From positions 93,920 to 157,919 of the forward strand of contig JBMOOS010000042.1 of NCBI GenBank assembly GCA_049324415.1: a stretch of DNA of 64,000 bases. The letters run 5' to 3'. Origin of the DNA: Pseudomonadota bacterium. GTDB lineage: Bacteria > Pseudomonadota > Alphaproteobacteria > Sphingomonadales > CAKZYD01. The position numbers were made by a program, and so were the translations under genes. Shown here in pieces: positions 3,872 to 63,829 of this stretch. The notes under the pieces were generated by a model. That model saw only the letters and a list, made by a program, of their open reading frames with translations. It had not been told where the DNA came from and made no database searches. The first letter of the stretch is position 1. Every line of letters begins with the position of its first letter.

Positions 3872-4114
3872 CCCCATCGGCCAGCGCGCCCAGGGTGTGG
3901 GCGCGGCATGCGTGCCTTGTTGGCATAGGATTTGCCGCGCCACGACATATGGGGCGGATAAGAGCCCGTCTTGAAACCGGGAGGCACGCATGGGCGAATG
4001 GATGCTGAGCCATGGGGTGGGCCTTCGCCTTGGCCTTCCTGCCGGTCTTGATGCCGCCCGTGCACTCGACTTTTCCGCCCCCTTCGCCAGCCCGTTCCAG
4101 CGCTGGAGCGGGCC

Positions 4115-4624
4115 ATGAAACGCCTCGGCTTATGGCGTCACGCCAAGTCTTCCTGGGACGACCCTTCCCTTGGTGATATCGATCGCCCGCTCAATGACCG
4201 TGGCAAGCGTGACGCGCCGCGCATGGCGCTGGCCATGGAGGAAATGGGCCTGCACTGGGACCTGGTGCTTTGTTCGCCCGCCCGGCGGGCGTGGCAAAGC
4301 GGCGCGGCCTTGGTGCCGGCCGGGGCTTGCGTTGAACTGGTCCCGGCCCTTTATCTGGCGTCGGCGACAACCCTGGTGGCGCTTATCCACGCCTTGCCGG
4401 ATGGCAAGCAGAGCGTTCTTATCATCGGCCATAATCCCGGGCTTCATGACCTGGCGCAGCGGTTGACGCAAAATGACAGCGGCGCGGCGCGAAAGGCCTT
4501 GGCGATGAAATTTCCCACCGCCGCCCTCGCCGTCATCGCCTGCAAGACCGCGCATTGGTCCGATATCGCCCCTGGACACTGCCAGCTTAGCCATTTCGTG
4601 CGGCCACATGATCTTAAGGGGTAA
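4115..4624 (+). CDS. histidine phosphatase family protein, SixA-like
   Basis: N-terminus MKRLGLWRHAKS (RHxxS catalytic His motif), later IIGHNPG, and ~170 aa size typical of SixA-type phosphohistidine phosphatases. Confidence 0.7.
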   Translation: MKRLGLWRHAKSSWDDPSLGDIDRPLNDRGKRDAPRMALAMEEMGLHWDLVLCSPARRAWQSGAALVPAGACVELVPALYLASATTLVALIHALPDGKQSVLIIGHNPGLHDLAQRLTQNDSGAARKALAMKFPTAALAVIACKTAHWSDIAPGHCQLSHFVRPHDLKG

Positions 4625-9001: not shown

Positions 9002-10645
9002 ATGCCCTCCTTCCGCCCCATTGGCCTTTTCATGGGCGCGTTCCTCATGGCTGGCGCGCTTGCCGGTTGTGACCGCGCGCCCCGGCAGGCGGCGGAGGAA
9101 GGCCCGTCCGAGGCGGCCGCGCCGGCGCGCAAAATCATCACCATCGCCAATGGCGCGGAGCCGTCCTCGCTCGACCCCCAGCGCACCAACCTTGTCGCCG
9201 ATCGGCGAGTGGTGGGCTCGCTGTTCGCCGGGCTGGTCGAAGTGGATGGCGCTGGCAACCTCATCCCCGGCATCGCGCAAAGCTGGGATGTCTCCGAGGA
9301 CGGCAAGGTCTATGTTTTCACCCTGCGCCAGGCCCGCTGGTCGGACGGCGCGCCCATCACCGCGCAGGATTTCGTGTTCAGCTTTCGCCGCTTGCTGGCG
9401 CCGGCGACCCAAAGCCCCTTTGCCGCTTATTATTTCGTCCTGCGCAACGGCAAGGCGGTCCATGACGGAACGATGCTGCCCGACAGCCTGGGCGTGGAGG
9501 CGTTGTCGGCGCATATCCTGCGCCTCACCCTGGAGCAGCCCATGCCTGCGCTCATGGGCCTCTTAAGCCACCAATCGGCGCTTCCCGTGCCGCGCCATGT
9601 GGTCGGCCGCTTCGGCGCCGCCTGGACCGAGCTCCGCCACCTGGTGGTGAGCGGCCCCTTCCGCCTGGTGGAATGGCAAGCCGGCGTCCGGCTTGAACTG
9701 GCGCGCAATCCCCTCTTTTACGACGCCGACAGCCTTGCCCTCGATGGCGTGGTGTTTTTGCCCGGGGAAGACATGGCCCTCACCTTACGCGCCTTCGATG
9801 AAGGCGAGGTCGATATCGTCGAAGGACTGCCGGCGGACAGCGTCGCGCGCTATCGCCGCGCCAGGGGGGAAGCGGTTCGCATCGAACCCTATTGGGCGCT
9901 TTATTGGTATGTCTTCAACACCGCGCGCCCGCCTTTCGATGATGTGCGGGTGCGCCGCGCCCTTGCCATGGCGGTCGACCGCCAGCACATCGTCGAGCAA
10001 GCGCTGGGCGCGGGCGGCGTGCCGGCGACCGGCATCGTCCCCCCGTCAATGCCGAGCTACGGCCCGCCGATGGCGCCCGCCTGGGCCGAGCTGAGCCTTG
10101 CCGCCCGCCGCGCCGAGGCCAAGCGCCTGCTCGAGGACGCCGGCTATGGCTCCGGCCATGCGCTTAGCGTCACCATATCCTATAACCCTTCGCCCGACCA
10201 CGACCGGGTCTTTGCTGCGGTCGCCGCCGATTGGCGCGCTCTTGGCGTCACCGTCAGCGCCCATGTCGCCTCGTTTCGCGAGCATGTCCAGGCGTTGGAA
10301 GCGGGCGACTTTGAAGTCGCCCGCCGCACCTGGGTCACAAGCTTCGACATGCCGGAATATTTTCTCGGGCTATTCGTCTCGAGCGCCGGTTCGCTCAACG
10401 TCGGGCGCTACGCCAACCCGGCGGTGGACGCGCTTTACGCGCAGGCCTTGGAGACCGCCGACCTGGCAACCCGCACCCGGCTGCTGAAAGCGGCGGAGGC
10501 GATCTTGCTCGACGATGCCGTCGCCGTCACCATTTACAACGATGTCAACCGCACTCTGGTGGGCCCCCGCGTTATCGGCTGGACAAACAATCCGACGGGC
10601 CGCCATCCCCTTCGCTTTCTCGATCTCGCGCCAGGGCAAGATTAG
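9002..10645 (+). CDS. ABC transporter substrate-binding protein, family 5 (peptide/nickel type), solitary
   Basis: 547 aa with lipoprotein-like N-terminus (LMAGALAGC). Overall pattern is that of OppA/DppA-type SBPs. No permease or ATPase genes are adjacent. Confidence 0.75.
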   Translation: MPSFRPIGLFMGAFLMAGALAGCDRAPRQAAEEGPSEAAAPARKIITIANGAEPSSLDPQRTNLVADRRVVGSLFAGLVEVDGAGNLIPGIAQSWDVSEDGKVYVFTLRQARWSDGAPITAQDFVFSFRRLLAPATQSPFAAYYFVLRNGKAVHDGTMLPDSLGVEALSAHILRLTLEQPMPALMGLLSHQSALPVPRHVVGRFGAAWTELRHLVVSGPFRLVEWQAGVRLELARNPLFYDADSLALDGVVFLPGEDMALTLRAFDEGEVDIVEGLPADSVARYRRARGEAVRIEPYWALYWYVFNTARPPFDDVRVRRALAMAVDRQHIVEQALGAGGVPATGIVPPSMPSYGPPMAPAWAELSLAARRAEAKRLLEDAGYGSGHALSVTISYNPSPDHDRVFAAVAADWRALGVTVSAHVASFREHVQALEAGDFEVARRTWVTSFDMPEYFLGLFVSSAGSLNVGRYANPAVDALYAQALETADLATRTRLLKAAEAILLDDAVAVTIYNDVNRTLVGPRVIGWTNNPTGRHPLRFLDLAPGQD

Positions 10646-12327
10646 GCGCTGGCATTGGTGTCCTTGATGCCGGCGATGGTAAAAAGCGCCATCAGCTTTT
10701 GCAGCTTGGCGGTCATCTCCGCCTGGTCCTTGGCGCCGGCGAGGTAATTGTCGAGGAGTTTGCTGCCGCGCATCAGGTCGCGGGTTTGCGCCCGCGCCAT
10801 GTCGAGTGTGAGGCCGACGCAAAAATAGCCATCGGCGATGAGCTGCAAGAGGCGCAAGGCCTTTTCCCAACGTTCGCTCGTCCCCGCCGCCAGGCGACCG
10901 AGAAGGCCGCTCTCCTTCATCACCCGCGCGGCGATGGCATCGAGCTCGCTGGTCATGCGTCCGCGCTGAACCTCATCGAAGTCGGATGCCGCCAACACCC
11001 CTTGCAGGGAGGCAAGGCGGCGCAGGCGCCGCATCACTTTGCCCTCGGTCGCCGCGATCTGCGCCTGGGTCGGCGGCGAGGTAAGAAGCAGCAGGATGAA
11101 GTTGGCCAATTGCCGCCGGCTGGCGTGACCAAGAGCGAAGCCCGCCAAATGAGCAAGGCGTTCCAAGCGAACGAGCGGATCGTCGTCATCATCGAGATGC
11201 TGCGAGACCGCCTGGACCGACAGGGTGCGCTCCGAACGGCGGCTGAAGGCCTCTTCCATCTGCCAGGAAAAATCGGTATCGGCCTTGATGTCGTCGGCGA
11301 AATCGTTCCACGCGCCGCGCATGTGTTCAAGCTCGCACAACAGACTGCCATCGCCCAGCTTGCCTGGCGACTTCACGATATGCACCGCTGCCCGCTCGAG
11401 GGTGAGGCGGCATTCGACGAGGGTATTCTCGGCAATGAGCCGGGCGACCGTCGCGTGGCCCGCCCGCGAGACGCCGCGGCGCAGCCCCTGCAAGGCCTGA
11501 ATCATGTCCAACCCTTCGCCCGCCTCGCCCACCATCTGGCGCATATGCGTGGGGTTGGCGATGATTTCGGCGAGCAGTGGGTCGAGCGCGCGCAATGCCC
11601 ATTTCGGCGGCGCGGCTTCGATCAAGCGCAGGACGATGGGCAATTTCGCTTCCAGGGTCTCGACTTGGCTGAGATAGCCGGCAAGCCCCATCATGAGGAG
11701 AAGACCGCGCTCCTCATGCTTGGCAAGGCCGCGCACGACGGCATCGAAAGTCTCCGGCGTGACCGGCGGCACGGCTCCGTCTTTGACGGCTTGCGTCAAG
11801 CGCCGCGCGGCCTGTCCGATGATGTCATAGATCTGGCGCATGCGCTCTTGCACCGAGATGTCCATTTCCTGGACCTGGATGATCGCCACCTTTTGCACCG
11901 CGTGTTGCAGGCTGGTGCCCTCGCTGTCGAGGCGCGTGTGATAGTCGGGGTGGTGCAGAAGCTCGGTCGGGGTGATCTGCCATTGGCCAAGGTTGCGCGC
12001 CAAAAGGCGGGCGAGGGTGCGGCGCCCCTCATAGGAATAAAGATCGCTCAGCTTCCAGCAATTGGCGGGGCGCTCGTTTTCATCCTCCATCTTGCCGCCG
12101 CCCTCGCCGCCGGCGACCTTGACCCCGTCATAATAGACCTGGATGGTTTGCACCTCGCCGTCCTGGCCGAGTTTGCGTTCGCGCAAGACCCGCACGGCGC
12201 GGTTGCGCCCCCCTTGACGCGCCGCCTTGGCGTTGGCGATAGCCGCCTTTTCCGACTGCGCGACCTCGATGAGGGTCCATTTGCGCCCGTCATAACCCAG
12301 CACTTCGTAGTGGACGTCGTGCGCCAT
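10642..12327 (-). CDS. hypothetical protein, 561 aa, partner of HerA-like ATPase
   Basis: High GC3 and balanced composition, unlike the R/G/A-rich antisense ORF 10699..12522. Its ATG lies 1 nt after the stop of the upstream ATPase gene. No motif recognised. Confidence 0.75.
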   Translation of the reverse strand: MAHDVHYEVLGYDGRKWTLIEVAQSEKAAIANAKAARQGGRNRAVRVLRERKLGQDGEVQTIQVYYDGVKVAGGEGGGKMEDENERPANCWKLSDLYSYEGRRTLARLLARNLGQWQITPTELLHHPDYHTRLDSEGTSLQHAVQKVAIIQVQEMDISVQERMRQIYDIIGQAARRLTQAVKDGAVPPVTPETFDAVVRGLAKHEERGLLLMMGLAGYLSQVETLEAKLPIVLRLIEAAPPKWALRALDPLLAEIIANPTHMRQMVGEAGEGLDMIQALQGLRRGVSRAGHATVARLIAENTLVECRLTLERAAVHIVKSPGKLGDGSLLCELEHMRGAWNDFADDIKADTDFSWQMEEAFSRRSERTLSVQAVSQHLDDDDDPLVRLERLAHLAGFALGHASRRQLANFILLLLTSPPTQAQIAATEGKVMRRLRRLASLQGVLAASDFDEVQRGRMTSELDAIAARVMKESGLLGRLAAGTSERWEKALRLLQLIADGYFCVGLTLDMARAQTRDLMRGSKLLDNYLAGAKDQAEMTAKLQKLMALFTIAGIKDTNASA

Positions 12328-12328
12328 T

Positions 12329-14023
12329 TTAGCGGGGCTCCGGGGCAGGTCCCGCCTTGCCGGCGCTGCGCCAGCGCTCGATCACCTTGGCGACGAAGCC
12401 GGCGGTGCCGCCAGGGGCGCGCCAGGCTTCGGAGAATTTGGGGTTGGAGCTGTTGGGGCGGAACTCCGGGGGTAAGTCGAAGACGGCGACGCGCGATGGC
12501 GCGGCGATGCCTTCGCCGATGACGAGGCATTCCTGGTTGCGCAAGGAGGGCAGAGCGGAAAGGAGGGCGCCGGAGCCTTCCGGCATCGCTTTCGCCACAT
12601 AACGCTGGTCGCGCTCGTTGTTCATGCGCATCGCCAGCATGGTGCCGCATTGCGAGAGCACCGATTCGGAAATATCGGCCGGGCGCTGCGAGACTAGGCC
12701 GAGGCTGACGCCATATTTACGCCCTTCCTTGGCGATCCGGTCGAGCATCCGCTTGGCGGCGTCGGCGCCTTGCGGGGCGTGCTCCGGCACATAGCGATGC
12801 GCTTCCTCGCAAATGAGCAGAACCGGGCGCATGTCCTTTTCCTCACGGCTCCACAAAGCAAAGTCAAAGACCACACGCGCAAGCATGGCGACGATGACGT
12901 TGACCACCTCGGAGGGAACCCCGGACAAATCGAGGATCGACACCGGCTTGCCGTCGGCGGGAAAGCGGAACATCTGGGCGAGGAACCCGGCAAGGTCATC
13001 GTTGACGACGAAGCCGGGGAACATGAAATTGTAGCGGGTGTCGGCCTTCAGCTCCTCGATCTTGGCCTTGAGCTTGAGATAAGGCGCGGCAGTGTCGGGC
13101 TTGTCGAGCTTGCCCACCGCCTTGTGGATTTCCCCGATGAGGTCGGAGAGAAGATAAGGCACCGGAGTGTCGGCGGTGATCCTGCTGTGCTGGCTCGAGG
13201 GCTTGCCCTTGCGCCGCGCGGCCAAAAGGCAGCGTTTCAGGATATCCACTTCGATCTCGCGATCCGGGGTGCGCGGGCCGATGAACATTTCCATGTGCTC
13301 TTCTAGGTTCATCAGCCAGAAGGGGATTTGCAGCGCGTTGATGTCAAAGCGCACGCCGATATCGGCAAAGCCGGCGGCGTATTCATTGTGCGGGTCCATG
13401 ATGAGGACATGGCCGTGGGGCGCCTGCTCCACAAGCTGGCGCACGAGAAGCGCGACCACGCTCGACTTGCCCGAGCCGGTCGAGCCGAGGACGGCGAAAT
13501 GCTTGCCCAAAAGGGGGTCGATCAACAACGCCGCCGGCACCGAATCCGTGGGATAGACATGGCCAACGTCGATATGGGCAAGGCCGCGCGGGGCAAAGAT
13601 CGCGCGCAAGTCCTCCGGCGTCGTCGTGTAAAAACACTGGCCGGGCACGGGATATTTGGTGATGCCGCGGCGAAAGGCCATGATCGTTGCGCCTTCGCGC
13701 AGCGCTTCGCCGACAAAGTCGATCTCGGCCATCAGGGCGGCGTGCATGCCAAGCCCCGCCTCCTTCAACGAGCGGACGACGCCGAACACATAGCGATTGC
13801 CGACGGCGACCTTGAGAAAGGAGCCCATCTGCCCGGTCATGGCGGAGCCTTTTTCACCTTCGGCGATGGCGGCGTTGCGGGCATCCTCGTTAAAGGTGCA
13901 GACGCAGGCCGCGCCCGAGGTTTCAAGGATTTCGCCAATCAGCCGGCCGCTATGGCTTGCGCTGGATGGGGAAGGGCGCGTCGGCGCGTCGGCGTCGATC
14001 GACAAGTCGATGGGCCTTTCCAC
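12329..14023 (-). CDS. HerA/FtsK-superfamily ATPase (DUF87-type)
   Basis: Walker A LGSTGSGKSS, Walker B region HVLIMDPHNEY, LLICEEAHRYVP and GLVSQRPADIS motifs. An N-terminal ~170 aa region precedes the P-loop, as in the HerA HAS-barrel region. Confidence 0.8.
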   Translation of the reverse strand: MERPIDLSIDADAPTRPSPSSASHSGRLIGEILETSGAACVCTFNEDARNAAIAEGEKGSAMTGQMGSFLKVAVGNRYVFGVVRSLKEAGLGMHAALMAEIDFVGEALREGATIMAFRRGITKYPVPGQCFYTTTPEDLRAIFAPRGLAHIDVGHVYPTDSVPAALLIDPLLGKHFAVLGSTGSGKSSVVALLVRQLVEQAPHGHVLIMDPHNEYAAGFADIGVRFDINALQIPFWLMNLEEHMEMFIGPRTPDREIEVDILKRCLLAARRKGKPSSQHSRITADTPVPYLLSDLIGEIHKAVGKLDKPDTAAPYLKLKAKIEELKADTRYNFMFPGFVVNDDLAGFLAQMFRFPADGKPVSILDLSGVPSEVVNVIVAMLARVVFDFALWSREEKDMRPVLLICEEAHRYVPEHAPQGADAAKRMLDRIAKEGRKYGVSLGLVSQRPADISESVLSQCGTMLAMRMNNERDQRYVAKAMPEGSGALLSALPSLRNQECLVIGEGIAAPSRVAVFDLPPEFRPNSSNPKFSEAWRAPGGTAGFVAKVIERWRSAGKAGPAPEPR

Positions 14024-14171
14024 GGCGCGATCCTTTCGGTTTTACTTTTTGCAAACCATGAAAGCTTGCCATGGCGCGGCTTAACATTCGGTGAAATCGC
14101 CGCTTTGCCACATTGCCGCCATGCTTGGCCGCAAGGTGCCCGCGGCAGATCCGCAATCGTGAGGAAAAACC

Positions 14172-15161
14172 ATGTTCCGCCATGTCCTTATCCTGGCGCT
14201 CGCGCTGTCTTTGCCGCCGCTTGCCTGGGCGCAAGCGCCAAGCGAGCCCTTGGCCCGGATGATCGACAAGGCCGCTGTCCGGGAGAAGGGCAAATATCTC
14301 GTTCCCACCCTGATGATGGCGATCGAAACGGCGCCGGAACAAGCGGCCATGCTGGCGGAGCGCGCCATCATGGCGGCGCCGGCCAAGGAGAAAGCCATTC
14401 TAAAAGCGCTGGCGGCGGGCAAGGTGGAGGTCCGCTTTGGCGATGGGGCAACGCCGAAGGATCGGCTCGCCACCGTGGCGGCGCGGGAGGCGGCGCGCCC
14501 GAAGCCTGGCTTTTTCGCGGCCGAAAGCTGGGACGGCGAGGTTACGCTCGGCGGCTCTCTCCTCACCGGCAATACCAAGGAAAAAGCGGTGACCGCCGGC
14601 GTAAAGCTTGACCGCGCGGTGGGCAGGCGGGAGCATCGCTTCGCCGCCACCGGCGATTATTCCACCAACGAAGGGGTGACCACCAAGGAGCGTCTGCTTG
14701 CCTCATACAGCACCAAATGGTTCGTCGGGACGCGCGGCTATGTCTTCGGACTCATCGATTTCGAGCTCGATACCTTTTCCGAATTCGACTGGCGGCTGTC
14801 GGAGGCCGGCGGGCTTGGCTATCGGTTGATCGAGCGCGACGGACTGGGTTGGGACCTTGAAGGCGGCCCCGGCGCCCGGCAAACGCGGCTCGAGGACAAC
14901 GGCACCGGCACCGAGTTCATTTTCGTCGGCCGCTCAGACCTTCTCTGGACGGTGAATGAAAACCTTAAATTCACCAACAAGACGACGGCCTTTTTTGGCT
15001 CGACGCGCATCACCCTCACCAACGATGCGGGATTTACCGCCAGCCTTACCGAACGCCTTGCCGGGCGGCTCAGTTTTTATATCAAGCACGACAGCGCGGT
15101 GCCGCCTGGCCAAGTCAAGACCGATACGGCGACGCGGGCGAGCCTGGTCTACGGCTTTTGA
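14172..15161 (+). CDS. DUF481-family outer-membrane beta-barrel protein
   Basis: Signal peptide MFRHVLILALALSLPPLAWA-QA, alternating beta-strand pattern, C-terminal ...ASLVYGF aromatic terminus. Confidence 0.65.
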   Translation: MFRHVLILALALSLPPLAWAQAPSEPLARMIDKAAVREKGKYLVPTLMMAIETAPEQAAMLAERAIMAAPAKEKAILKALAAGKVEVRFGDGATPKDRLATVAAREAARPKPGFFAAESWDGEVTLGGSLLTGNTKEKAVTAGVKLDRAVGRREHRFAATGDYSTNEGVTTKERLLASYSTKWFVGTRGYVFGLIDFELDTFSEFDWRLSEAGGLGYRLIERDGLGWDLEGGPGARQTRLEDNGTGTEFIFVGRSDLLWTVNENLKFTNKTTAFFGSTRITLTNDAGFTASLTERLAGRLSFYIKHDSAVPPGQVKTDTATRASLVYGF

Positions 15162-53461: not shown

Positions 53462-53866
53462 TCAGTCCTCGGCCTTTTCCGCCATGCCCTCCCCGCGTGG
53501 GGCGCGGAAGTCCTGCTTTTCCGCAATGCGCGCCGCCTTGCCTTTCAGGCCACGCAGATAATAGAGCTTGGCGCGGCGCACCTTGCCGCGGCGGACAAGG
53601 GTGATCGAATCGATGATCGGGGCATAAAGCGGGAACACCCGTTCCACCCCCTCGCCGAACGAGATCTTGCGCACGGTGAAAGCGGAGTTGAGGCCGCGAT
53701 TGCTGCGGGCGATGCACAGGCCTTCGAAATTCTGCACCCGCTCGCGGGTGCCTTCCACCACCTTGACGCCGACCCGCACGGTATCGCCCGGGCGGAAATC
53801 GGGAATGTCCTTGCCTTGCGCCAGCTTGGCGATCTGTTCTTTTTCCAGCGTGTCGATGATATCCAT
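53462..53866 (-). CDS. rplS: 50S ribosomal protein L19
   Basis: [11 protein letters not shown]...[30 protein letters not shown] lies 9 nt upstream of ATG 53866. The alternative ATG 53875 overlaps the trmD stop. Confidence 0.9.
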
Positions 53867-53871
53867 CGCCG

Positions 53872-54597
53872 TCATCCTTTCTTGTCCGTGCCCGGAAGAG
53901 GGCGACCGGCCAGATAGCGCTGCCACAGGTCCGGCCGCCGTTCGCGGGTCTTTTGTTCCGCCTGGGCCAAGCGCCAGGCCTTGATCTTGCCATGGTCCCC
54001 CGAGGTCAGCACCTCGGGGACGGTCCGCCCCTCCCAGCATTGCGGACGGGTATAATGCGGGTATTCCAAGAGCCCGCGGGCAAAGCTTTCTTCCTCCAGC
54101 GTCGCCGCCTCTCCCACCACCCCGGGGAGGAGGCGAACGATCGCGTCCAAAACCACCATCGCCGCCGGCTCGCCGCCCGACAGCACATAATCGCCGATCG
54201 AGACCTCCTCGATCGGCCGGGCGAGAAGCAGGCGCTCATCGATCCCTTCGAAGCGCCCGGCGATCAACGTTATCCCCGGCCCCTTGGCCAGCCGTTCAGC
54301 CATGGCCTGGGTGAAGAGCGCACCGCGCGGGCTTAAATAAACCAGTGGCGCCGCCGGCTGGCGCGCCAAGGCTTCATCCACCCCCCGCGCCAAAACATCG
54401 CAGCGCAGCACCATTCCCGGCCCGCCGCCCGCTGGCGTGTCGTCGACGGCGCGGTGTTTATCATATGCGAAATCGCGAATGTCCAGCGATTCCAGCGTCC
54501 AAATCCCCTCTTTCAGCGCCTTGCCGGCGAGGGAAAAGCCCAGCGGCCCGGGAAACATCGCGGGGAAAAGGCTGAGAATTTGCGCGTGCCAGGCCAT
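53872..54597 (-). CDS. trmD: tRNA (guanine37-N1)-methyltransferase
   Basis: [10 protein letters not shown]..., [10 protein letters not shown] and [11 protein letters not shown] motifs. Conserved operon position. Confidence 0.93.
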
Positions 54598-54611
54598 GGT
54601 TCACCAAGGAC

Positions 54612-55142
54612 TTAGGCGATGAACGCCGGGTCAACGGTCACTTTACGCGCCTTTTCATCGACCACCGGCACCGCTTGCCGGGTAAAGGGCACGAGAGCGG
54701 TGCCGCCCGCGCTCAAGGCGATTTCCAGAAGGTCGCCGCCGCCGTAATTCGCCACCCCATCCACCATACCCAAGGGCGCGCCAGTGGAATCGGCGACCGC
54801 CATGCCGATGAGGTCGGCATGAAAGATGCCTTCCCGCGCTTGTCCCAGCGCCGCGCGCGGCACGAAAAGCCGGACGCCCTTGTGCGTCTCGGCCGCGCTG
54901 CGGTCGGCAACGCCATCAAGCCGGGCAATGAGGCCGCGCTTGTGCGGCCGGGCGGCGACAATCCGCAGCGGCGCGCCGCCGGCGCCAAGCGCCAAGCCTT
55001 GAAGGCCGGCCAGGGTTTCCGGCCTTTGGGTGAAGCTTTCGATCATGACCTCGCCCTTGATGCCATGGGCGCCGGCGATGCGCCCGACGCAAACCCAGCC
55101 GGGCACCCCGTCCTCATCGCGCGAGCCGCGTCCGGCTGTCAT
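54612..55142 (-). CDS. rimM: ribosome maturation factor RimM
   Basis: VGRIAGAHGIKGEV, a PRC-barrel C-terminus, and position between rpsP and trmD. Confidence 0.88.
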   Translation of the reverse strand: MTAGRGSRDEDGVPGWVCVGRIAGAHGIKGEVMIESFTQRPETLAGLQGLALGAGGAPLRIVAARPHKRGLIARLDGVADRSAAETHKGVRLFVPRAALGQAREGIFHADLIGMAVADSTGAPLGMVDGVANYGGGDLLEIALSAGGTALVPFTRQAVPVVDEKARKVTVDPAFIA

Positions 55143-55144
55143 CG

Positions 55145-55522
55145 TCAGCCTTCAGCCGCATCGCCCGCGGCGGCTTCGGCGGCTTGCGCTTCCTTGGCGC
55201 GCAAGGCCTCGGCGCGTTCCTGCGCCTTCTTTTTCGGCTTCGCCTTGTCGGGATTGGCGCGCGCCGAACGCTGCATCAGGCCGGCGGCATCGAGAAAGCG
55301 CGCCACCCGGTCGGTCGGCTGGGCGCCTTGCGCCAGCCAGTAGCGCGCCCGCTCGGCGTCGAGCACGACGCGGCCTTCATGCTCCTTGGGGAGCAGCGGG
55401 TTATAGGTCCCCAGCTTCTCGATGAAGCGGCCGTCGCGGGCGGCGCGGCTGTTGGCGACGACGATGCGGTAGAAGGGCCGCTTCTTGGCGCCGCCGCGGG
55501 ACAATCTGATTGCTATGGCCAT
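55145..55522 (-). CDS. rpsP: 30S ribosomal protein S16
   Basis: [42 protein letters not shown], with a Lys/Ala-rich C-terminal tail. Confidence 0.93.
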
Positions 55523-55580
55523 GGTTGCATATCCTTTCCTGTGAAGTGCTGGTTGGTCAGTGCTGGTCTTCCGCCACGCC

Positions 55581-56945
55581 TCAGCGGCGCGGGATGAGGT
55601 TTTCCATGCCGGGGGGCAACATGCCGGGGGCGATGCCACGCTTGCCCATTTTCTTCATGCGCTTCATCATGCCGCCCATTTGCTGGTGCATTTTCAAAAG
55701 CTTGTTGACATCAGCAACGCTGGTGCCGGAGCCGGCGGCGATGCGCCGCTTGCGGCTGGCGGCGATGATTTTGGGGTTGGCCCGCTCATGGGGCGTCATC
55801 GAGCCGATGATCGCTTCCTGGCGCTTCAAGATGGCGTCGTCGAGCTTGGCGTCCTTGAGCTGGCTTTTCAGCTTGCCAACGCCCGGCAGCATGGCAAGAA
55901 CGCCTTGCATGCCGCCCAATTTGCGCATTTGCTGCAACTGGCTTTTAAGGTCGTTCAAATCGAAGGCGCCGCGGGCAAGCTTGCGGGCAAGCTTTTCCGC
56001 GTCTTCCTGCGCGATGGTCTCGGCCGCCTTTTCGACCAGCGACACCACATCGCCCATGCCCAGGATGAGGCCGGCCACCCGCTCGGGGTGAAAGGGCTCG
56101 ATGGCGTCGAGCTTTTCGCCCACCCCGATCAGCTTGATGGGCTTCTTGGTCACCGCCCGCAAGGACAAGGCGGCGCCGCCCCGCCCGTCGCCGTCCATGC
56201 GGGTGAGGACCGCGCCGGTGATGCCCACCTTCTCGTCAAAGTCGCGCGCCACATTGACCGCGTCCTGGCCGGTGAGGGCGTCGGCGACGAGGAGGGTCTC
56301 CAAGGGCTCGGCGGCGCGCTTGACGGCGCCGAGCTCGGCCATCAGCGAAGCGTCCACATGCAGCCGGCCTGCGGTATCGAGGAGGACGACATCAAAGCCT
56401 TGCAGGCGCGCGGCGTTGACCGCCCGCCTGGCGATGTCCACCGGCATCTGGCCGGCGATGATGGGCAAGGTCGGCACCTTGGCCTCGCCGCCCAGAATCT
56501 TCAGCTGCTCCTGGGCGGCCGGCCGGGCGACGTCGAGCGAGGCCATGAGCACCCGCTTTTTGTCCTTGTCCTTGAGCTGCTTGGCGATCTTGGCGGTGGT
56601 CGTCGTCTTGCCCGAGCCTTGCAGGCCGACCATCATGATGACCACCGGCGGGGTGCCCGCAAGGTCGAGGGCGGCGGTTTCAGCCCCCAAGGTGGCGACC
56701 AGCTCGTCATGGACGATTTTCACCACCTGCTGGCCCGGGGTGACCGAGCGCAGGACGTCGCGCCCCACCGCCTTGGCCTTCACCCGCGCGATGAAGTCCT
56801 TGACCACGGGAAGCGCGACGTCGGCCTCAAGAAGGGCGACGCGCACCTCGCGCAGCGCCTCGCCGACGTCCGACTCGCTGAGCGCGCCGCGCCCGCGCAA
56901 GCGGTCGAAGACCTGACCCAGCCTTTCGCTCAAACTGTCGAACAT
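55581..56945 (-). CDS. ffh: signal recognition particle protein Ffh
   Basis: [35 protein letters not shown] and a Met-rich M domain. Confidence 0.95.
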
Positions 56946-57287
56946 CGCCTTGCCTTAACCCTTCATCGCCTTGTCACGCATAAAACACCAACGGCACCGG
57001 CGGGCGAATCCTCGCTGGCCGGTGGGCATCCTCGGACGCGTCAGTCTTGCTTCTGGCACTAAACAGCCGAGCACATAGACCGAAAGGTTTGCCGAAGTCA
57101 AGAAAAGCGGGTTTTTCCGCGCCCGCCCCATGACGCCGCATGGCCGTCAACTGTCGTTATGCAAATTTTAAGTATTTTCCCTGAAAAGTTGTGTCGCTCG
57201 TTCACGAGCAGGCGATAGGGAATAGTTCGGTCTTGGCGTCTTGGGACCCTCTTTGGACGCGCGGACCATTGAGTGGAGTATACACGG

Positions 57288-57827
57288 ATGAGGTTGTCTC
57301 GCGTTGCGTTTCTCGTTGCCTCGACATGGGCGACGATCCTTGGCGGTCCCGCCACGGTTCAAGCGGAAACGACAGAAAAAGACATTCAAGTGGCGGCGCG
57401 CGCCGTCGCTTTCATGGAAAATGCGCCGTCCGGGGATACGCCGGCGGCGATCATTTACGACCCGGCCAATGGCGCCACCAAGGCGGAGGCCGAAGCCATT
57501 CAGAAAGCGATGGGCGCAGGCCTTAAGGCAGGCAACGCCAATTTGCAGCCCAAGCTGGTCGCGGTCGGCTCCCTTGGCGACCTTGCTGGCGCCAGGGTCG
57601 CTTTCGTGACCGGCGGGCTTGGCGCGCAGCATGGGGCGATTTTCGCCGCCGCGGCGCCGAAATCCATTCTCACCGTCTCGACGGACATGAGCTGTGTCGA
57701 CGCCGGCAAATGCGTGGTCGGGGTGATGACCCAGCCCAAGGTCGAGATCATCGTCAGCAAGGCCGCGCGCGATGCCTCCAGCATCAGCTTCGCCGCCGCC
57801 TTCCTGATGATGGTCAAAGAGAAATAA
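57288..57827 (+). CDS. YfiR-like (DUF4154) periplasmic protein
   Basis: Signal peptide MRLSRVAFLVASTWATILGGPATVQA. Size (~180 aa) and pattern (...VAFVTGG...ILTVS...G..VGV...KVEIIVSKAARDAS.ISFAAAFL) are as I recall for DUF4154. GGAG lies 9 nt before ATG 57288. Confidence 0.55.
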   Translation: MRLSRVAFLVASTWATILGGPATVQAETTEKDIQVAARAVAFMENAPSGDTPAAIIYDPANGATKAEAEAIQKAMGAGLKAGNANLQPKLVAVGSLGDLAGARVAFVTGGLGAQHGAIFAAAAPKSILTVSTDMSCVDAGKCVVGVMTQPKVEIIVSKAARDASSISFAAAFLMMVKEK

Positions 57828-57863
57828 GCGCTGCCGCGCTCAGTCAGACGAAAGAGAAATCCC

Positions 57864-59942
57864 ATGTACGCGTACAAAGCACTTCTCAGCCTCACCGCCG
57901 CCACCGGCGTCTTTGTCTTGGCCCAAGCGGCCAATGCGCAAACCATCGACTATGGCTCGCTCGAAATGCTGTTCGACGAGCCGGTGACCACCAGCGCCAC
58001 CGGCAAGCCGCAGCGCGCCGGCGACGCGCCGGTGACGATGGAAATCATCACCGCAGAGCAGATCCGCCGCTCCGGCGCCAGCGACATTCCGGAAGTCCTG
58101 CGCTTCGTCATCGGCATGTCGGTGCAGCGCTCGACCCTGGGCGGGGTCGATGTTGGCATGCGCGGCTATAACGGCGCCTTCAACGAGCGCATCCTGGTGC
58201 TGGTCAACGGCCGGCAGGCCTATCTCGATCATTTCGGCTATATCGAATGGGCATCGCTGCCGGTGGCGCTTGAGGAAATTCGCCAGATCGAGGTGGTGAA
58301 AGGCCCCAACACCGCGCTTTATGGCTTCAACGCCACCAGCGGGGTGATCAACATCATCACCTATAACCCGCTTTATGACACCAATGTGCAAGTGACGGCG
58401 CGGGGCGGCAATCTCGACTATCTGGAAGCGTCGGCGAACTTCACCAAGAAAATCTCCAACCGCCTGGGCGTGCGCGTCTCGGCCGGCGGCTGGCGCTCGA
58501 CCGATTTCACCACCCACCTCCACCACTTTCAGGAAAACGCCCTGCGCGACGACGCCAAGCGCAATTTCGTCGCCGGCGAGGTGATCGGCCAGGTGACCGA
58601 CAATATCCAGGCGGGCTTTGAGGCGACCTATAGCGAGGTCGACCAGGGCGAGCTGTTTTTCGACTACACATTTTCCTACAGCACCTATGAATCGAAGTCC
58701 TTCAAGGCCTTCGTCGCCGCCGAGACCAAGGCGGGGCTGACGGAAGTGAAAGCCTATCGCAATTCGACCGACCTGGTGAACACCTCGACCCTTGCCGGGG
58801 AAAGCCAGTTCATCACCATCCCGGTCGACACCAGGGTCTCGGTGGCCAGCATCAGCCATCTTTTCAAGGTGGGCGCTGATCACGCCTTCCGCGGCTCGGT
58901 CGAATACCGCAATAACGTCAACCCCACCTTCCCGGCCAATATCGGCGAGCTGCATTTCAAAAGCTGGTCGTTCAGCGGCATGTGGGACTGGGCCGTCAAC
59001 GACAAGCTCAGCTTCATCGCCGCCGGCCGCTACGACACGCTGGGCATGACCCGCACCGGCGATTTTCTCACCGGCCTGGTCTTCGACAACGACGACTTTG
59101 CCCGCCAGATCAAGGAATGGAGCCTCAATACCGGCCTTGTCTATAAGCCAACGGAGGAAGACACCATTCGCCTCACCATGGGCAAGGGGGTCGACCTCCC
59201 CTCGGCGACCGAATTCGGCCTCATGAAGCAGGTGGCGCAAACCGTGTTCCAGATCGGCAATCCGCTGCTCAAGACCTCGCGGGTATGGAATTTCGAGCTG
59301 GGCTATGACCATAGCATCGAGGCGATCGATGGTCAGTTCCGCAGCGCCCTTTTCTATTACAAGGCGAGCAATCTCCAGAATATCCAGCAGAACGAGCAAG
59401 AGGATCTGCCCGGCGGCATCGACGTCTTCGTGGCGGAAAACTCCCTCAACACCCGGGCCCTTGGTTTCGAGACCGGGCTTAAAGGCAAGGCGGGCGAGAA
59501 TATCGACTGGTTCGTCAACTATCTCTTCGTCGATGTGAAAGATACTTCCGGTGAAGACGATGGTGGCGCGGAAGCCCTTGGCCGGCTGGAAGCGGTGGAT
59601 TTCCAGAACAACGCCCCCAAGCACACCCTCAATTTCGGGCTTGGCTATAAAAAGGATAAGTTCAGCGTCGATCTTTACAACTCGCTCACCTCCTCGCGGC
59701 GGCAATTGCGCGGCAACCGCCGGCTGGTGATCGACGATGGCGGCGATGAGATCGAGATCATCGAGCTCATCTTCGTTCCCATCAGCACCCAATTGAAGGT
59801 CAACGGCCGCGCCGCCTATCAGGTGACCGACAACCTCACCGTGGCGATGGAAGGCCAGGGCCTCACGCAAAAAGACTTCCGCGAGACTTCGCTCGCCAAG
59901 ATCGAGCGGCGCTGGACCATATCCTTGAACTACCGGTTCTAG
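57864..59942 (+). CDS. TonB-dependent outer-membrane receptor
   Basis: Signal peptide, plug-domain motifs (IEVVKGPNTALYGFNATSGVINIIT), a long beta-barrel and the terminal ...SLNYRF. Confidence 0.88.
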   Translation: MYAYKALLSLTAATGVFVLAQAANAQTIDYGSLEMLFDEPVTTSATGKPQRAGDAPVTMEIITAEQIRRSGASDIPEVLRFVIGMSVQRSTLGGVDVGMRGYNGAFNERILVLVNGRQAYLDHFGYIEWASLPVALEEIRQIEVVKGPNTALYGFNATSGVINIITYNPLYDTNVQVTARGGNLDYLEASANFTKKISNRLGVRVSAGGWRSTDFTTHLHHFQENALRDDAKRNFVAGEVIGQVTDNIQAGFEATYSEVDQGELFFDYTFSYSTYESKSFKAFVAAETKAGLTEVKAYRNSTDLVNTSTLAGESQFITIPVDTRVSVASISHLFKVGADHAFRGSVEYRNNVNPTFPANIGELHFKSWSFSGMWDWAVNDKLSFIAAGRYDTLGMTRTGDFLTGLVFDNDDFARQIKEWSLNTGLVYKPTEEDTIRLTMGKGVDLPSATEFGLMKQVAQTVFQIGNPLLKTSRVWNFELGYDHSIEAIDGQFRSALFYYKASNLQNIQQNEQEDLPGGIDVFVAENSLNTRALGFETGLKGKAGENIDWFVNYLFVDVKDTSGEDDGGAEALGRLEAVDFQNNAPKHTLNFGLGYKKDKFSVDLYNSLTSSRRQLRGNRRLVIDDGGDEIEIIELIFVPISTQLKVNGRAAYQVTDNLTVAMEGQGLTQKDFRETSLAKIERRWTISLNYRF

Positions 59943-60039
59943 AACCCATGGGTGAGGTCACGAGATGGACCATGCGAAGCAAAAACAGCGGGAGAGGGGG
60001 CATCCTCCTCTCCCTCACCTAAGCCAAAGGATGTCACCG

Positions 60040-61824
60040 ATGTTGCGTATGAATGATTTGCCCCTGCTCATCAAAGTCAGCCTGGCGCCAGCCATTGCCT
60101 TTGTCATTCTCCTCGCCCTGGCGCTGTTCGCCAATTTCGGCTTGACCCGCGCTTCCGGCGGGGTCGGGCAAATTGTCGATAATGACATGAAGATCACCCG
60201 CCAGCTCGCCGCCGCCGATAGCCAGTTCAAGGAACTGGACGGCGATCTTTATCGCCTTATCACCCTTTACGCCGCGGGCGATAAGTCGGTCGAGCTTGCC
60301 ACTGGCGTCAAGGCGCTCAAGGACCATCTGGCCGAGGTGCGGGGCAGGCTCGACCATTTGAAAACCGACTTTTCGGGGCAGGTCGATGAAGACAATTTGA
60401 ACGCCATCGAGGCCGAGCTCGTCAAATATGGCGAGGCCATCGATGTCGTGACCTCGATGCTGGAGATCGATTTTGCCAGCGCTGTCTCCTTCATCCAGCC
60501 GTTTCGCGAGAACGCCGCCAAGGTGGCATCGACCATCGAGGCCTTGGCGATCCAGGCGCAGGAGCGCTCGGATGAGCGCGCCGCCACCATTCAGGAAAGC
60601 GTTTCCAGCATCACCATCACCTTTCTCGTGACCACGGCGGTCGCCGGCCTCATGGTCGCTGCCCTCGCTTGGCTCATCGGGCGCAAGACCAGCACCTCGA
60701 TCACCGAGATCGCCAAGGCCACCGCCCGCCTCGCCGATGGCGACCGGGCGGTTGACGTCAATGCCCTTGCGCGCAAGGACGAGCTGGGAACGGTGGTCGA
60801 CGCCTTGCGGCAGTTCCGCGAGCAAATGCTGGAGAACGATCGCCTGCAGCAAGAGCAGCAAGCGATGCGCGCCAAGGCGGAAGAAGAAGAAAAGCGGCGC
60901 CGCGAGGAAGCCCGCCAGGCCGAGCAAGCGCAGCGCGCCCAGGAAGAGGAGCGGCGGCGCAAGGCCGAGGAAGAGAAAAAGGAGATGCTGCGCAAGCTCG
61001 CCGACGCCTTTGACCTCTCGGTCTCTTCCGTCGTCAAGGTGGTGCAGCAGTCGGCCGGCGACCTCGATACCCGCTCCGCCGGGGTCAAGGACCGCGCGGT
61101 CGATAATGAAGGTCTGTGCCGCTCGCTTTCCAGCGTCGCCGATGACGTCTCCGGCGGCATGCAGGTGGTGGCGACGGCGACCGAGGAGCTCTCCTCCTCG
61201 ATCAGCGAAATCTCGCGCCGGGTGAACGAGTCCTCGACCGCGGTGAAAAGCGCGGTTGAGCGCACCCGCGAGACCAACAACGCGGTGCTCGAGCTTGCCT
61301 CCACCGCCGAGCGCATCGGCCAGGTGGTGACGCTGATCAACGACATCGCCTCCCAGACCAACCTCCTCGCGCTCAACGCCACCATCGAGGCGGCGCGCGC
61401 CGGTGAGGCCGGCAAGGGCTTTGCCGTGGTGGCGAGCGAGGTGAAGAACCTTGCCGGCCAGACCGCCAAGGCGACCGACGAGATCGCCGAGCAGGTGGAA
61501 AGCGTGCAGTCGGTCACCGATATCGTGGTGAAATCGATGAAGCTCATCGGCGAGACCATCGACCAGGTGAACGGCATCGCCGCCGATATCGCCGCCGCGG
61601 TCGAGCAGCAAGCCAAGGCGACCGACGAGATCGCCCACACCGTGTCGGCGGCGACCAGCAAGATCAGCACCTTGTCGGGAAGCGCCGAGGAACTCACCCG
61701 TTCCTCCGTCGACAATGGCGATGCCGCCAGCAACCTCATCGAGATCGTCGCCGCGCTGCGCCAGCAGTTCGATGAATTGCAGAAGGAGGCCAACGGCTTC
61801 GTCGAAAAGATCCGCGCCGCCTGA
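60040..61824 (+). CDS. methyl-accepting chemotaxis protein (periplasmic helical sensor, HAMP, charged coiled-coil insert, MCP signalling domain)
   Basis: Two TM segments, a HAMP-like segment ([18 protein letters not shown]...[10 protein letters not shown]) and the highly conserved tip [35 protein letters not shown] 60040 follows AAAGGA by 8 nt; the track ORF starts at 59965. Confidence 0.88.
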
Positions 61825-61927
61825 CGGGCTGCAAGCCCTTTAGAGGCAAGCCCCGCCTTTGCCCCTTTGCCCGCCGCCGGCCGCTTGTTATAGTCGCCGG
61901 CGGCACCGGCAGAACGAAGGGAACGCC

Positions 61928-62329
61928 ATGGTCCGCGCCGTCATTGCGATCATCGCCGGTCTCGGCGGCGCTCTCATCGTCATCCTCGCCACCGAATGGC
62001 TGGGCCATATGCTGGCGCCGTCAATGGGGGCTGCTCCTGGTGAATTTGAGTCTGTGGCCATGGCGGGCGCCGCGCTGCCCCTTGCCAGTCTTGTGCTTGT
62101 GCTTCTTGCCTATGTGCTGGGTAGTTTGGCCGGCGGCTGGATCACGGCGCGTATCATGGGCGACAGGCAATGGTGGCCGTCGCTGACGGTGGGAGCGATG
62201 CTCCTTCTCGGCGTCATCATGAATCTGGAAGCCATTCCCCACCCCTTGTGGTTCGCCGTGCTTGCCCTTGTCATACCCCTGCCGTTGGCCTTGGCCGGGT
62301 TTCGCCTCGCGCGCAGTCTTGCCCGCTGA
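61928..62329 (+). CDS. hypothetical small membrane protein (133 aa, 4 predicted TM)
   Basis: MVRAVIAIIAGLGGALIVILATEWLG... is hydrophobic throughout. AAGGGA precedes the ATG. Stop lies 3 nt before the DASS transporter. Confidence 0.6.
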   Translation: MVRAVIAIIAGLGGALIVILATEWLGHMLAPSMGAAPGEFESVAMAGAALPLASLVLVLLAYVLGSLAGGWITARIMGDRQWWPSLTVGAMLLLGVIMNLEAIPHPLWFAVLALVIPLPLALAGFRLARSLAR

Positions 62330-62332
62330 TCC

Positions 62333-63829
62333 ATGACCGACCTTGGCATCGCTGCCCGCGCGGCCACCCGGGCAGGCTATCAGCGCATCGGCTTTGCCTT
62401 GGGGCCGCTTGTCGGGCTTTTGCTCCTCCTCCTGCCCGCGCCGGAGGGCCTCAGCCTTGAAGGCTGGCGTGTCGTCGCCCTTGCCGCCTGGATGGCGATC
62501 TGGTGGGCGACCGAGGCAATCCCGGTGCCGGCGACCTCGCTGCTCCCCATCATCGCCTTGCCGCTGCTGGGGGTTTCCGGCATCGCCGCCGCCACCGCCC
62601 CCTTTGCCAATCCAGTCATCTTCCTGTTGCTGGGTGGCTTCGTCATCGCCCTCAGCCTGGAGGAATGGGGCCTCCACCGCCGCATCGCCCTTGGCGTCCT
62701 TGCCCGGGTTGGCGACCATAAGCTTGCCATGCTCGCCGGCTTCATGGGGGTGGCGGCGTTCCTTTCCATGTGGATCTCCAACACCGCCACCACCATGATG
62801 ATGATGCCGATCGCCTTGTCGGTGGCGGGGGTCGTCGGCAAGGGCAAGGCGGGCACGCGCGATGGCGAGGCTTTCACCGTCATGCTGCTTTTGGGCATCG
62901 CCTATGCCGCTTCCATCGGCGGCATGGGAACCCTCATCGGCACCACCACCAACGCGGTCGCCGTCGGCTATTTGCGGGACGCCTTCGCCATGGATTTGGG
63001 CTTTGCCGATTGGCTCGCTTTCGGCCTGCCGGCGGTGGTCGTCCTCGTCCCTGCGGCATGGGCCATCCTCACCCTGCTGCTGCGCTGGCGCTTGGGGCCG
63101 CAAGGGCTTGCCGGCGCGCCCGACGCCAGCGCTTTCATCCGCCATGAACTGGCGTTGCTCGGCCCTATGACGCGGCCGGAAAAGCGGGTGGCCTGGCTGT
63201 GCTGCGCCGTCGCGCTTTTGTGGATCGCCCGCCCGGCGGTCAACGCCTTTCTCGGCGCCCGTTTTCTCACCGATGCCGGCATCGCCATTTTGGGCGCCGT
63301 CGCCCTCTTTGTCATTCCCGCAGGGGATAAACAAAAGCGCGATGCCTTTCTTCTCGACTGGCGCGCGACGACGCGCATGAACTGGGGGGTTTTATTGTTA
63401 TTCGGTGGCGGTATGTCGTTGGCGAGCGCGGTGGATGGCTCGGGGCTTGCCCTGTGGCTGGGCGGGGCCTTGGCCGGGCTCACCGCCCTGCCGCTCCCCC
63501 TGCTCATGCTCATCCTCGTCACCCTTGTCGTGTTTCTGACCGAGCTCACCAGCAATACGGCGACCATCGCCACCTTGATGCCGATCCTCGGGGCGCTCGC
63601 CACTGCCGGCGGCTTTGACCCCCTGCTGCTTGCCGCGCCGGTGGCGATGGCCGCTTCCGCAGCCTTCATGCTGCCGGTCGCCACCGGACCCAATGCCGTG
63701 GTCTTTGGCAGCGGCCATGTCCATGTGCCGGACATGGCGAAGACCGGCTTCTGGCTCAACCTTGCCGCCATCGCAGGGCTTACCGCCATCGGCGCCTTAT
63801 GGGTGCCGCTGCTGCTTGGCGTGCGTTGA
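62333..63829 (+). CDS. DASS/SLC13-family sodium-coupled anion symporter
   Basis: 498 aa, very hydrophobic, with the two hairpin-tip SNT motifs (MWISNTATTMMMMP and ELTSNTATIATLMP). Confidence 0.85.
   Translation: MTDLGIAARAATRAGYQRIGFALGPLVGLLLLLLPAPEGLSLEGWRVVALAAWMAIWWATEAIPVPATSLLPIIALPLLGVSGIAAATAPFANPVIFLLLGGFVIALSLEEWGLHRRIALGVLARVGDHKLAMLAGFMGVAAFLSMWISNTATTMMMMPIALSVAGVVGKGKAGTRDGEAFTVMLLLGIAYAASIGGMGTLIGTTTNAVAVGYLRDAFAMDLGFADWLAFGLPAVVVLVPAAWAILTLLLRWRLGPQGLAGAPDASAFIRHELALLGPMTRPEKRVAWLCCAVALLWIARPAVNAFLGARFLTDAGIAILGAVALFVIPAGDKQKRDAFLLDWRATTRMNWGVLLLFGGGMSLASAVDGSGLALWLGGALAGLTALPLPLLMLILVTLVVFLTELTSNTATIATLMPILGALATAGGFDPLLLAAPVAMAASAAFMLPVATGPNAVVFGSGHVHVPDMAKTGFWLNLAAIAGLTAIGALWVPLLLGVR

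Follow-up and report, generated by a model that had tools for sequence, protein, structure and literature searches.

A YfiR-like protein, a TonB-dependent receptor and a chemoreceptor encoded together: a candidate trans-envelope sensory module

The systems YfiBNR, TpbB, AwsXRO and HmsCDE of Pseudomonas, E. coli and Yersinia each place a secreted YfiR-fold protein beside an inner-membrane transducer with a periplasmic domain and an outer-membrane partner. YfiR binds YfiN through its C-terminus, depends on an essential Cys145-Cys152 disulfide and is sequestered by the outer-membrane protein YfiB (PMC3375315, PMC4655355). Working in silico only, Malone et al. 2012 (PMC3375315) recognized the core of YfiR and the PAS domain of YfiN as a widespread module with GGDEF-EAL, Hpt, kinase and methyl-accepting chemotaxis protein (MCP) outputs; its sensors were of the YfiN PAS type, and a TonB-dependent receptor partner went unmentioned. 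Here, we describe a cluster of three genes in a 64,000-nucleotide stretch of contig JBMOOS010000042.1 (the window), which encodes a YfiR-like periplasmic protein (Y), a TonB-dependent receptor (T) and an MCP with a periplasmic sensor domain (S), and we compare it with related loci from other genomes and metagenomes.

The cluster shares with YfiBNR the general arrangement of the encoded proteins, a hydrophobic C-terminus and a possibly equivalent C-terminal cysteine pair in the YfiR-like component, a HAMP domain in the transducer and a modular output end. It differs in its outer-membrane partner, which is a 22-strand TonB-dependent receptor rather than the OmpA/Pal-like lipoprotein YfiB; almost every related locus, like the window, has such a receptor, and no yfiB-like gene lies in the cluster. 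In addition, S is a predicted four-helix bundle whereas YfiN carries a PAS-like domain, the output is an MCPsignal (chemotaxis) domain rather than GGDEF, which sets the transducer apart from the YfiN type, and Y has diverged to the point of scoring below the Pfam threshold and of being missed as a YfiR relative by a PDB profile search.

Three further systems invite comparison. FecA-FecR-FecI resembles the arrangement proposed here in that receptor ligand occupancy would be passed across the periplasm to an inner-membrane protein controlling a cytoplasmic response. T, however, lacks the STN domain (~80 aa) and carries only 10-12 conserved extra residues ahead of the TonB box, the intermediary is a soluble protein of the periplasm instead of a membrane-anchored anti-sigma factor, and the outputs are CheA control, cyclic di-GMP (c-di-GMP) or a phosphorelay instead of an extracytoplasmic function (ECF) sigma factor. 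In binding-protein chemoreception (MalE-Tar, RbsB/MglB-Trg, DppA-Tap and LsrB-Tsr, with entry through LamB), a periplasmic protein is likewise taken to bind at the apex of a four-helix-bundle chemoreceptor, and access requires an outer-membrane channel; in contrast, Y has a single-lobe YfiR fold rather than two lobes, the genes form a fixed three-gene module, and the outer-membrane component is energy-coupled (TonB-dependent). Finally, in QseG-QseE an outer-membrane-associated protein regulates an inner-membrane sensor via a periplasmic four-helix bundle, and its structure 9m08 is among the Foldseek matches of the S model; that system has two components, no soluble adaptor and no homology to Y or T.

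We propose that Y, T and the MCP constitute one trans-envelope sensory module, a YfiBNR-like relay that runs from receptor through adaptor to transducer and ends in chemotaxis; in our judgement, this reading is evenly poised between right and wrong. T would bind or import a ligand at the outer membrane, Y would serve as soluble periplasmic adaptor and hub, as YfiR does in YfiBNR, and the MCP would be the inner-membrane transducer, receiving the signal at the membrane-distal apex of S. In one state, Y would sit on this apex and set the MCP's control of CheA. Ligand-loaded T would expose its N-terminus (QTIDYG.LE.LF.EPVTTSA, the TonB-box region) and capture or release Y, so that receptor occupancy is turned into a chemotactic response, and sister lineages would have wired the same Y-T input to c-di-GMP enzymes or histidine kinases. 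We suggest the conserved N-terminal peptide of T as the Y-binding element because it adjoins the TonB box, a region that becomes exposed on ligand binding, as is established for BtuB, FhuA and FecA. While the identity and fold of the parts, their conserved linkage, the modular re-use of S, the clade-stable partners and the correlated divergence described below are observations, we infer the ligand, the Y-S and Y-T contacts, the direction in which the signal travels and the sign of the response. More tentative still, and in our view possible rather than probable, is the specific idea that the TonB-dependent receptor is the primary chemotaxis sensor, with the YfiR-like adaptor reporting its ligand state to the chemoreceptor apex.

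Identity and predicted folds of the three proteins

Gene Y encodes a protein with a Sec-type signal peptide (approximately aa 1-26; cleavage between ATVQA and ETTEK, read by eye), which a preliminary description of the window had likened to DUF4154, with a hidden Markov model search suggested as a check. That search returned 21.2 bits (E 3.4e-4) against the Pfam family PF13689 (DUF4154, YfiR/HmsC-like), below the gathering score of 24.9, so the assignment stands on fold and transitive homology and not on the direct match. All 16 closest homologues of Y match PF13689 (E<=0.1; best E 6.5e-7), several homologues with 44-61% identity have precomputed PF13689 matches, and one is named 'YfiR/HmsC family' by NCBI. 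The AlphaFold2 model of Y (predicted local distance difference test, pLDDT, 89) shows the single alpha/beta-domain YfiR fold, and the top Foldseek matches in the PDB are the YfiR structures 4yn9, 4xjy, 4zhu, 4yn7, 5eb1 and 6ikk, together with the Rhodothermus YfiR homologue 6k1x/5z6v (E ~3e-5, probability 1.0, TM-score 0.62-0.71). Judged by predicted fold and transitive homology, Y's membership of the YfiR/HmsC-like group appears to hold. In a full HMMER search, 754 clusters at 50% identity reached E<=1e-3, of which 588 had E<=1e-10, and Y therefore represents a sizeable, distinct branch of the YfiR superfamily; a word-index profile search, which returned 30 clusters (all E<1e-33), under-reports the family compared with full HMMER.

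The most conserved features of Y are Cys136 and Cys142 (codons 57693-57713), which do not vary among 16 homologues and hardly do so among 173, together with PKVEI and F..AFLMMVKE (F..AF.MM..E across homologues), two motifs near the C-terminus; the C-terminus itself is hydrophobic. We liken the two cysteines to YfiR Cys145-Cys152 by their position near the C-terminus, not by a residue-by-residue structural match.

The second gene had been described as a 692-aa TonB-dependent receptor without a FecA-type extension, and our analysis agrees on both counts. T has complete Plug and 22-strand barrel domains, a TonB-box-like EPVTTSA segment and a C-terminal aromatic residue (Phe, in ...LNYRF), all of which mark it by sequence as a TonB-dependent receptor, and it has 1489 homologues with E<1e-10. 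Its signal peptide ends between ANA and QT, and the receptors of its clade, which share only ~34-40% identity overall, show at least 80% conservation over the mature N-terminus, Q(T/S)IDYG.LE.LF.EPVTTSATG.PQR. No match to the FecA-type signalling (STN) domain was found in T, whose Plug begins at residue 54, ~28 residues past the cleavage site, and we rejected T as a FecA-type transducer on the ground that it lacks this domain.

The best NCBIfam matches of Y and T, and of three other receptors of the clade, are NF053591 (TOL_0243, YfiR-like) and NF053590 (TOL_0244, receptor). Scores were 16.9 against a cutoff of 125 for Y, and 126.8 for T and 127-149 for the three other receptors against a cutoff of 645. 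With scores this far below the curated cutoffs we rejected equivalog membership, and Y and T of the window are accordingly cousins of TOL_0243 and TOL_0244 rather than members. The family names show that annotators had already seen a YfiR-like/receptor pair; no published function of the TOL_0243/TOL_0244 pair was found in the literature searched.

The cysteine pair of Y and the domain make-up of T bear on one alternative, in which T, in the manner proposed for YfiB, would signal envelope stress or the energisation of TonB (proton-motive force) and Y would pass this state on to chemotaxis, giving energy- or stress-taxis. YfiBNR responds to envelope and redox stress via YfiR disulfides and YfiB (PMC3375315, PMC4655355), Y keeps its near-invariant cysteines, and the module is not accompanied by any conserved metabolic or uptake gene pointing to a substrate. 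T, however, is intact in plug, barrel and TonB-box-like segment, as in a working transporter, and the duplicated Y-T pairs and extra T copies of some loci (L012, L053, L022, L028) look like diversification of ligand specificity. We give an envelope-state sensor little credence.

As the preliminary description had stated, the third gene encodes a transmembrane MCP, with two transmembrane segments around a 157-aa periplasmic domain, followed by HAMP and MCPsignal domains. The periplasmic domain S matches Pfam 4HB_MCP_1 over model positions 8-175 of 181 with 18.4 bits, below the gathering score of 27. Its single-sequence AlphaFold2 model consists of four long helices (pLDDT 84.5), and Foldseek aligns it with the ligand-binding domains of PcaY, Vc1313, MCP2201 and Tar (TM-score 0.65-0.78, E only 0.015-0.2). 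By its model, then, S is a predicted four-helix bundle with a sub-threshold sequence-family score. The S motif SMLEIDF.SAV.F..PF occurs once in the window and is common to MCP, kinase and GGDEF proteins; a second apex motif of S is LYRL.T..AA. The conserved positions of S map to the last part of helix 1 and the loop joining helices 3 and 4, both at the membrane-distal apex of the predicted bundle.

Such an apex is the docking place of binding proteins on Tar, and its conservation in S can also be read in terms of a hand-off of ligand resembling that of the maltose system (LamB, MalE, Tar). T would take up a substrate whose size or scarcity rules out entry through porins, Y would act as a small solute-binding protein, and loaded Y would dock on the MCP apex without any Y-T contact. 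The YfiR fold corresponds to one lobe of a periplasmic binding protein, Y-S pairs occur without T in two loci (L043, L059), and Foldseek with the Y model also matches the Rhodothermus entry 6k1x/5z6v, a 'substrate-binding protein', and the ABC-type binding proteins 3lkv and 3lft, relatives that have been noted for YfiR before (PMC4655355). Yet Y is a single-lobe protein without the two-lobe clamp that gives a ligand-dependent shape change, no ligand-site residues are identifiable in it, and both the very close spacing of Y and T in almost all loci and the conservation of T's periplasmic N-terminus point to a direct relationship between Y and T. We regard the hand-off as unlikely, if by no means negligible.

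Conserved linkage and exchange of partners

The preliminary description had stated that DUF4154-type genes often adjoin TonB-receptor genes and a membrane sensor, and had named an MCP with its own promoter in a non-conserved neighbourhood as an outcome that would speak against a functional link. We found the statement to be accurate for the Y subfamily and the neighbourhood to be conserved. A genome scan with a nine-sequence subset of close Y homologues, combined with exact-protein look-ups, gave loci L001-L021, in which every locus of sufficient length has Y, T and an MCP amid unrelated flanks. The genes follow the order Y-T-MCP or T-Y-MCP, and in T-Y-MCP loci the gap between Y and MCP is only 14-25 nt. 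Starting from homologues of T with ~40% identity, we also found the trio in Skermanella pratensis (CP030265.1, ~2.745-2.750 Mb), Azospirillum halopraeferens (KE386927.1) and a Phenylobacterium-related sequence; overall, metagenomic and genomic loci place the trio in Kordiimonadales, Yunchengibacter, Vitreimonas, Acidocella, Azospirillum, Skermanella and Phenylobacterium. A metagenome scan with another Y branch contributed 80 further loci.

For a tabulation of outputs, as had been suggested, the window and 105 of the 107 related loci were collapsed at 90% Y identity to 76 groups. The Y-T pair adjoins an MCP in 30 of these and, in 18, a ~990-aa protein immediately upstream on the same strand that combines a periplasmic domain between two transmembrane segments with GAF, PAS, GGDEF and EAL domains. 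Histidine kinases bearing the MCP's S domain account for four groups, a GGDEF protein with S for one and other kinases or GGDEF-EAL proteins nearby for two; four groups have no sensor within at least 2 kb on both sides (L023, L081, L088, L097), and 17 were too short to judge. The unbiased metagenome subset comprised 14 MCPs, 18 GGDEF-EAL proteins, four kinases with S, one GGDEF protein with S and three with none. The MCP is thus one of the two commonest outputs of Y-T and not an oddity, and, because the trio recurs in ~30 non-redundant lineages with unrelated flanks, its neighbourhood is conserved far beyond chance. Among groups long enough to judge, Y-T adjacency is broken only in L043 and L059. 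A Micavibrio genome carries an operon of Y and a hybrid kinase, divergent from T.

S is found with four different outputs. Besides the MCP, it is fused to a hybrid kinase-REC-Hpt protein in L056 and L082 (order Y-T-kinase), to a plain kinase in L043 and L059, where the gene is divergent from Y and T is missing, and to GGDEF in L101, upstream of Y-T, and the Y gene adjoins it every time. One sensor domain with four outputs and a constant neighbour is, as a sequence pattern, the classic signature of a cognate sensor-partner pair, and it lends strong support to the earlier suggestion that the MCP fills the 'sensor slot' of the cluster. Since Y-T occurs without S and Y-S without T, Y is the common element.

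The type of partner follows the clades of a neighbour-joining tree of Y. All 18 GGDEF-EAL-linked Ys fall into one clade, which contains one nested switch to MCP (L030), and the four sensor-less Y-T pairs form one clade inside an MCP clade. Pairwise distances among Y, T and S correlate at 0.81-0.84 over 27 non-redundant trios, the pairs of which are not independent of each other, whereas the correlation of each with the MCP's cytoplasmic domain is only 0.64. Controlling for S, partial correlations with the cytoplasmic domain drop to 0.04 for Y and -0.03 for T; controlling for the cytoplasmic domain, they amount to 0.64 for Y-S and 0.71 for T-S. This pattern fits a co-evolution of the three periplasm-facing parts, although domain shuffling could contribute to it. 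We rejected chance adjacency in view of S always lying beside Y, the 14-25 nt Y-MCP gaps, the clade-stable partners, the co-divergence of S, Y and T and the homology of Y to YfiR.

A GC-rich hairpin lies between T and the MCP gene (Table 1). A terminator consensus scan reported no plus-strand terminator at 59990-60014, and the hairpin might act in attenuation, in stabilising a 3' end or as a weak terminator. It may determine how strongly the receptor is expressed relative to the MCP. Hairpins of different sequence recur directly after the T stop codon in L002, L004, L007, L009, L011, L012, L024, L041 and L046; some have U-tracts, and those of L041 and L046 look like true intrinsic terminators.

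This element is of interest for a third alternative, namely co-localisation without a relay. Y would then be an accessory of T in gating, folding or TonB coupling, the sensors would be co-regulated or same-nutrient neighbours, and the MCP would sense its ligand directly. Such a view would accommodate the hairpin or terminator between T and MCP, the four groups of Y-T pairs that lack a nearby sensor although 2 kb or more of sequence is available on either side, and the adjacency of Y-T to sensors of unrelated periplasmic folds. It is at odds with the recurrence of the same S on four outputs, always beside Y and even where T is absent, with the short Y-MCP gap of T-Y-MCP loci, and with the stability of partner type within Y clades. 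Moreover, S, unlike the cytoplasmic domain of the MCP, diverges in step with Y and T, and the homologue of Y, YfiR, is proven to regulate a membrane sensor. On balance, we consider mere co-localisation improbable.

Features of the window and variation among related loci

Table 1 Coordinates of the Y-T-MCP cluster in the window
Feature	Position	Strand	Details
Region between the divergent genes ffh (- strand) and Y (+ strand)	56946..57287		342 bp
Gene Y, YfiR-like periplasmic protein	57288..57827	+	179 aa from chosen ATG
Gene T, TonB-dependent receptor	57864..59942	+	692 aa
T mature N-terminus QTIDYGSLEMLFDEPVTTSATGKPQR (residues 26-52), including putative TonB box	57939-58019	+	Conserved
T Plug domain	58023-58346	+	Residues 54-161; Pfam 68 bits
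T barrel, TonB_dep_Rec_b-barrel	58542-59849	+	Residues 227-662; Pfam 100 bits
Hairpin GGGAGAGGGGG-CAT-CCTCCTCTCCC	59990..60014	+	11-bp, GC-rich, no U-tract; RNAfold -20.4 kcal/mol
MCP gene	60040..61824	+	594 aa
MCP first transmembrane segment (TM1)	60064-60138	+	
MCP predicted periplasmic four-helix-bundle sensor S	60139-60609	+	157 aa (residues 34-190)
Two conserved S apex motifs	60247-60279 and 60457-60504	+	
MCP second transmembrane segment (TM2)	60610-60681	+	
MCP HAMP domain	60673-60828	+	Pfam 30.6 bits
MCP charged coiled-coil insert	60844-60999	+	52 residues
MCP signalling domain (MCPsignal)	61249-61704	+	Pfam 110.9 bits

The open reading frame coordinates agree with the layout first described, in which three genes on the same strand are separated by 36 nt (Y-T) and 97 nt (T-MCP). 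Gene Y has a possible alternative GTG start 15 nt upstream of ATG 57288. For the MCP, we preferred ATG 60040 over ATG 59965, since the former has a Shine-Dalgarno sequence (AAAGGA) 8 nt upstream and homologues align from residue 1-2. The insert between the HAMP and signalling domains of this protein consists almost only of E, K, R, A and Q and coincides with an AT-skew peak in the composition profile.

The region upstream of Y is AT-richer than its surroundings, as had been noted, with a GC content of 0.55-0.56 compared with 0.62-0.70 in the flanks. It presumably contains the promoter of the Y-T-MCP cluster; a sigma-70 consensus scan of 56946..57287 returned none. Within this presumed promoter region, 5' of ffh, lies the ffh leader motif (ffh sRNA RF01793; 56986-57039, minus strand; Rfam 47.8 bits), and the minus-strand genes at 53462-56945 resemble an ffh-rpsP-rimM-trmD-rplS cluster, as judged by eye from the translated reading frames. 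Downstream of the MCP follow, on the plus strand, genes for a 156-aa hydrophobic protein with a weak DUF3792 match (61859-62329) and for a DASS-family anion:sodium symporter (62333-63829; TIGR00785, 279 bits), neither of which is kept beside the module in other loci. Across the related loci examined, the flanks are heterogeneous, and no conserved metabolic or uptake neighbours give a clue to the substrate. The window itself is metagenome-assembled, and the genomes closest to it at this locus are alphaproteobacterial, Kordiimonadales among them.

Several related loci depart from the simple three-gene arrangement. The input pair is often duplicated in one locus, as Y-T-MCP-Y-T, Y-T-Y-T or Y-T-Y (L012 at 11893-14462; L053; L049, L071), and a second, paralogous receptor may follow the MCP (L022 at 11494-13386; L028 at 10318-12321); judged from sequence, both look like a diversification of ligand specificity feeding one transducer. 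L030 (Y at 2322-2834) is an MCP-type locus whose Y is nested in the otherwise uniform GGDEF-EAL-associated clade, and it appears to record a partner-switching event. L045 has two outputs, a GGDEF gene upstream and an MCP downstream, a protoglobin-GGDEF gene follows the MCP in L041 and L042 (10779-12005), and L087, L092, L095 and L066 have a second PAS-GAF-GGDEF-EAL gene, which is convergent and lies directly downstream of T. In a low-GC, marine-type subgroup (L051, L071, L083, L049), a wider block is conserved beside Y-T; it comprises a hybrid kinase with an uncharacterised ~280-aa periplasmic domain, a small Hpt protein, a divergent MCP that L083 lacks, and a pyridoxal phosphate (PLP) enzyme of Cys/Met metabolism (in L049, Hpt gene at 3591-3953, minus strand, and PLP enzyme gene at 4034-5371).

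Weight of the evidence and implications of a proposed receptor-to-chemotaxis relay

A number of observations weigh against the proposed relay. A PDB sequence-profile search with the Y alignment did not reach YfiR, its best hit being a de novo design at E 0.24, and the direct Pfam and NCBIfam scores of Y are sub-threshold. The sensors linked to Y differ in periplasmic fold: that of the window is a predicted four-helix bundle, those of the GGDEF-EAL clade have a domain of ~110 aa, and some kinases have CHASE4-like or longer ones. Such variety sits uneasily with one conserved mode of docking. Y-T pairs without an adjacent sensor indicate that the pair can stand alone, and Y may primarily serve T. 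Given the stable hairpin and its terminator-like counterparts in some relatives, the MCP may be expressed separately from T. Lastly, the mirror-tree comparison draws on non-independent pairs, and a shuffling of cytoplasmic domains would yield the same pattern.

The pairing of a YfiR-type protein with an MCP is not wholly new. The preliminary description was aware of no account of such a link, a claim of novelty that is too strong in view of the MCP outputs reported in silico for YfiR-YfiN modules by Malone et al. 2012 (PMC3375315). Within the literature searched, in a library that is incomplete, we found no account of a TonB-dependent receptor partner, of the four-helix-bundle sensor family with the MLEIDF motif or of a receptor-to-chemotaxis link; the receptor partner and the four-helix-bundle sensor appear to be undescribed.

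Periplasmic chemoreceptor domains see only what reaches the periplasm. To our knowledge, chemotaxis to TonB-dependent substrates such as siderophores, haem, cobalamin and complex chelates is largely unexplored, and we know of no established signalling route from TonB-dependent receptors other than the FecA-FecR-ECF sigma pathway. A receptor-adaptor-MCP module would make chemotaxis to such substrates directly testable, and Skermanella pratensis, Azospirillum halopraeferens and Yunchengibacter salinarum are available as cultured carriers. Should the receptor be the primary sensor, the module would represent a second, sigma-factor-independent form of cell-surface signalling, which would allow cells to swim toward substrates barred from porins and in which the same input would be re-plugged into c-di-GMP enzymes and phosphorelays. 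If the proposed relay is true, YfiR biology would extend beyond YfiB and YfiN, with a bearing on biofilm and motility decisions, and a Y-T input wired alternately to chemotaxis, c-di-GMP turnover and phosphorelays would constitute a second general solution to signalling across the envelope.

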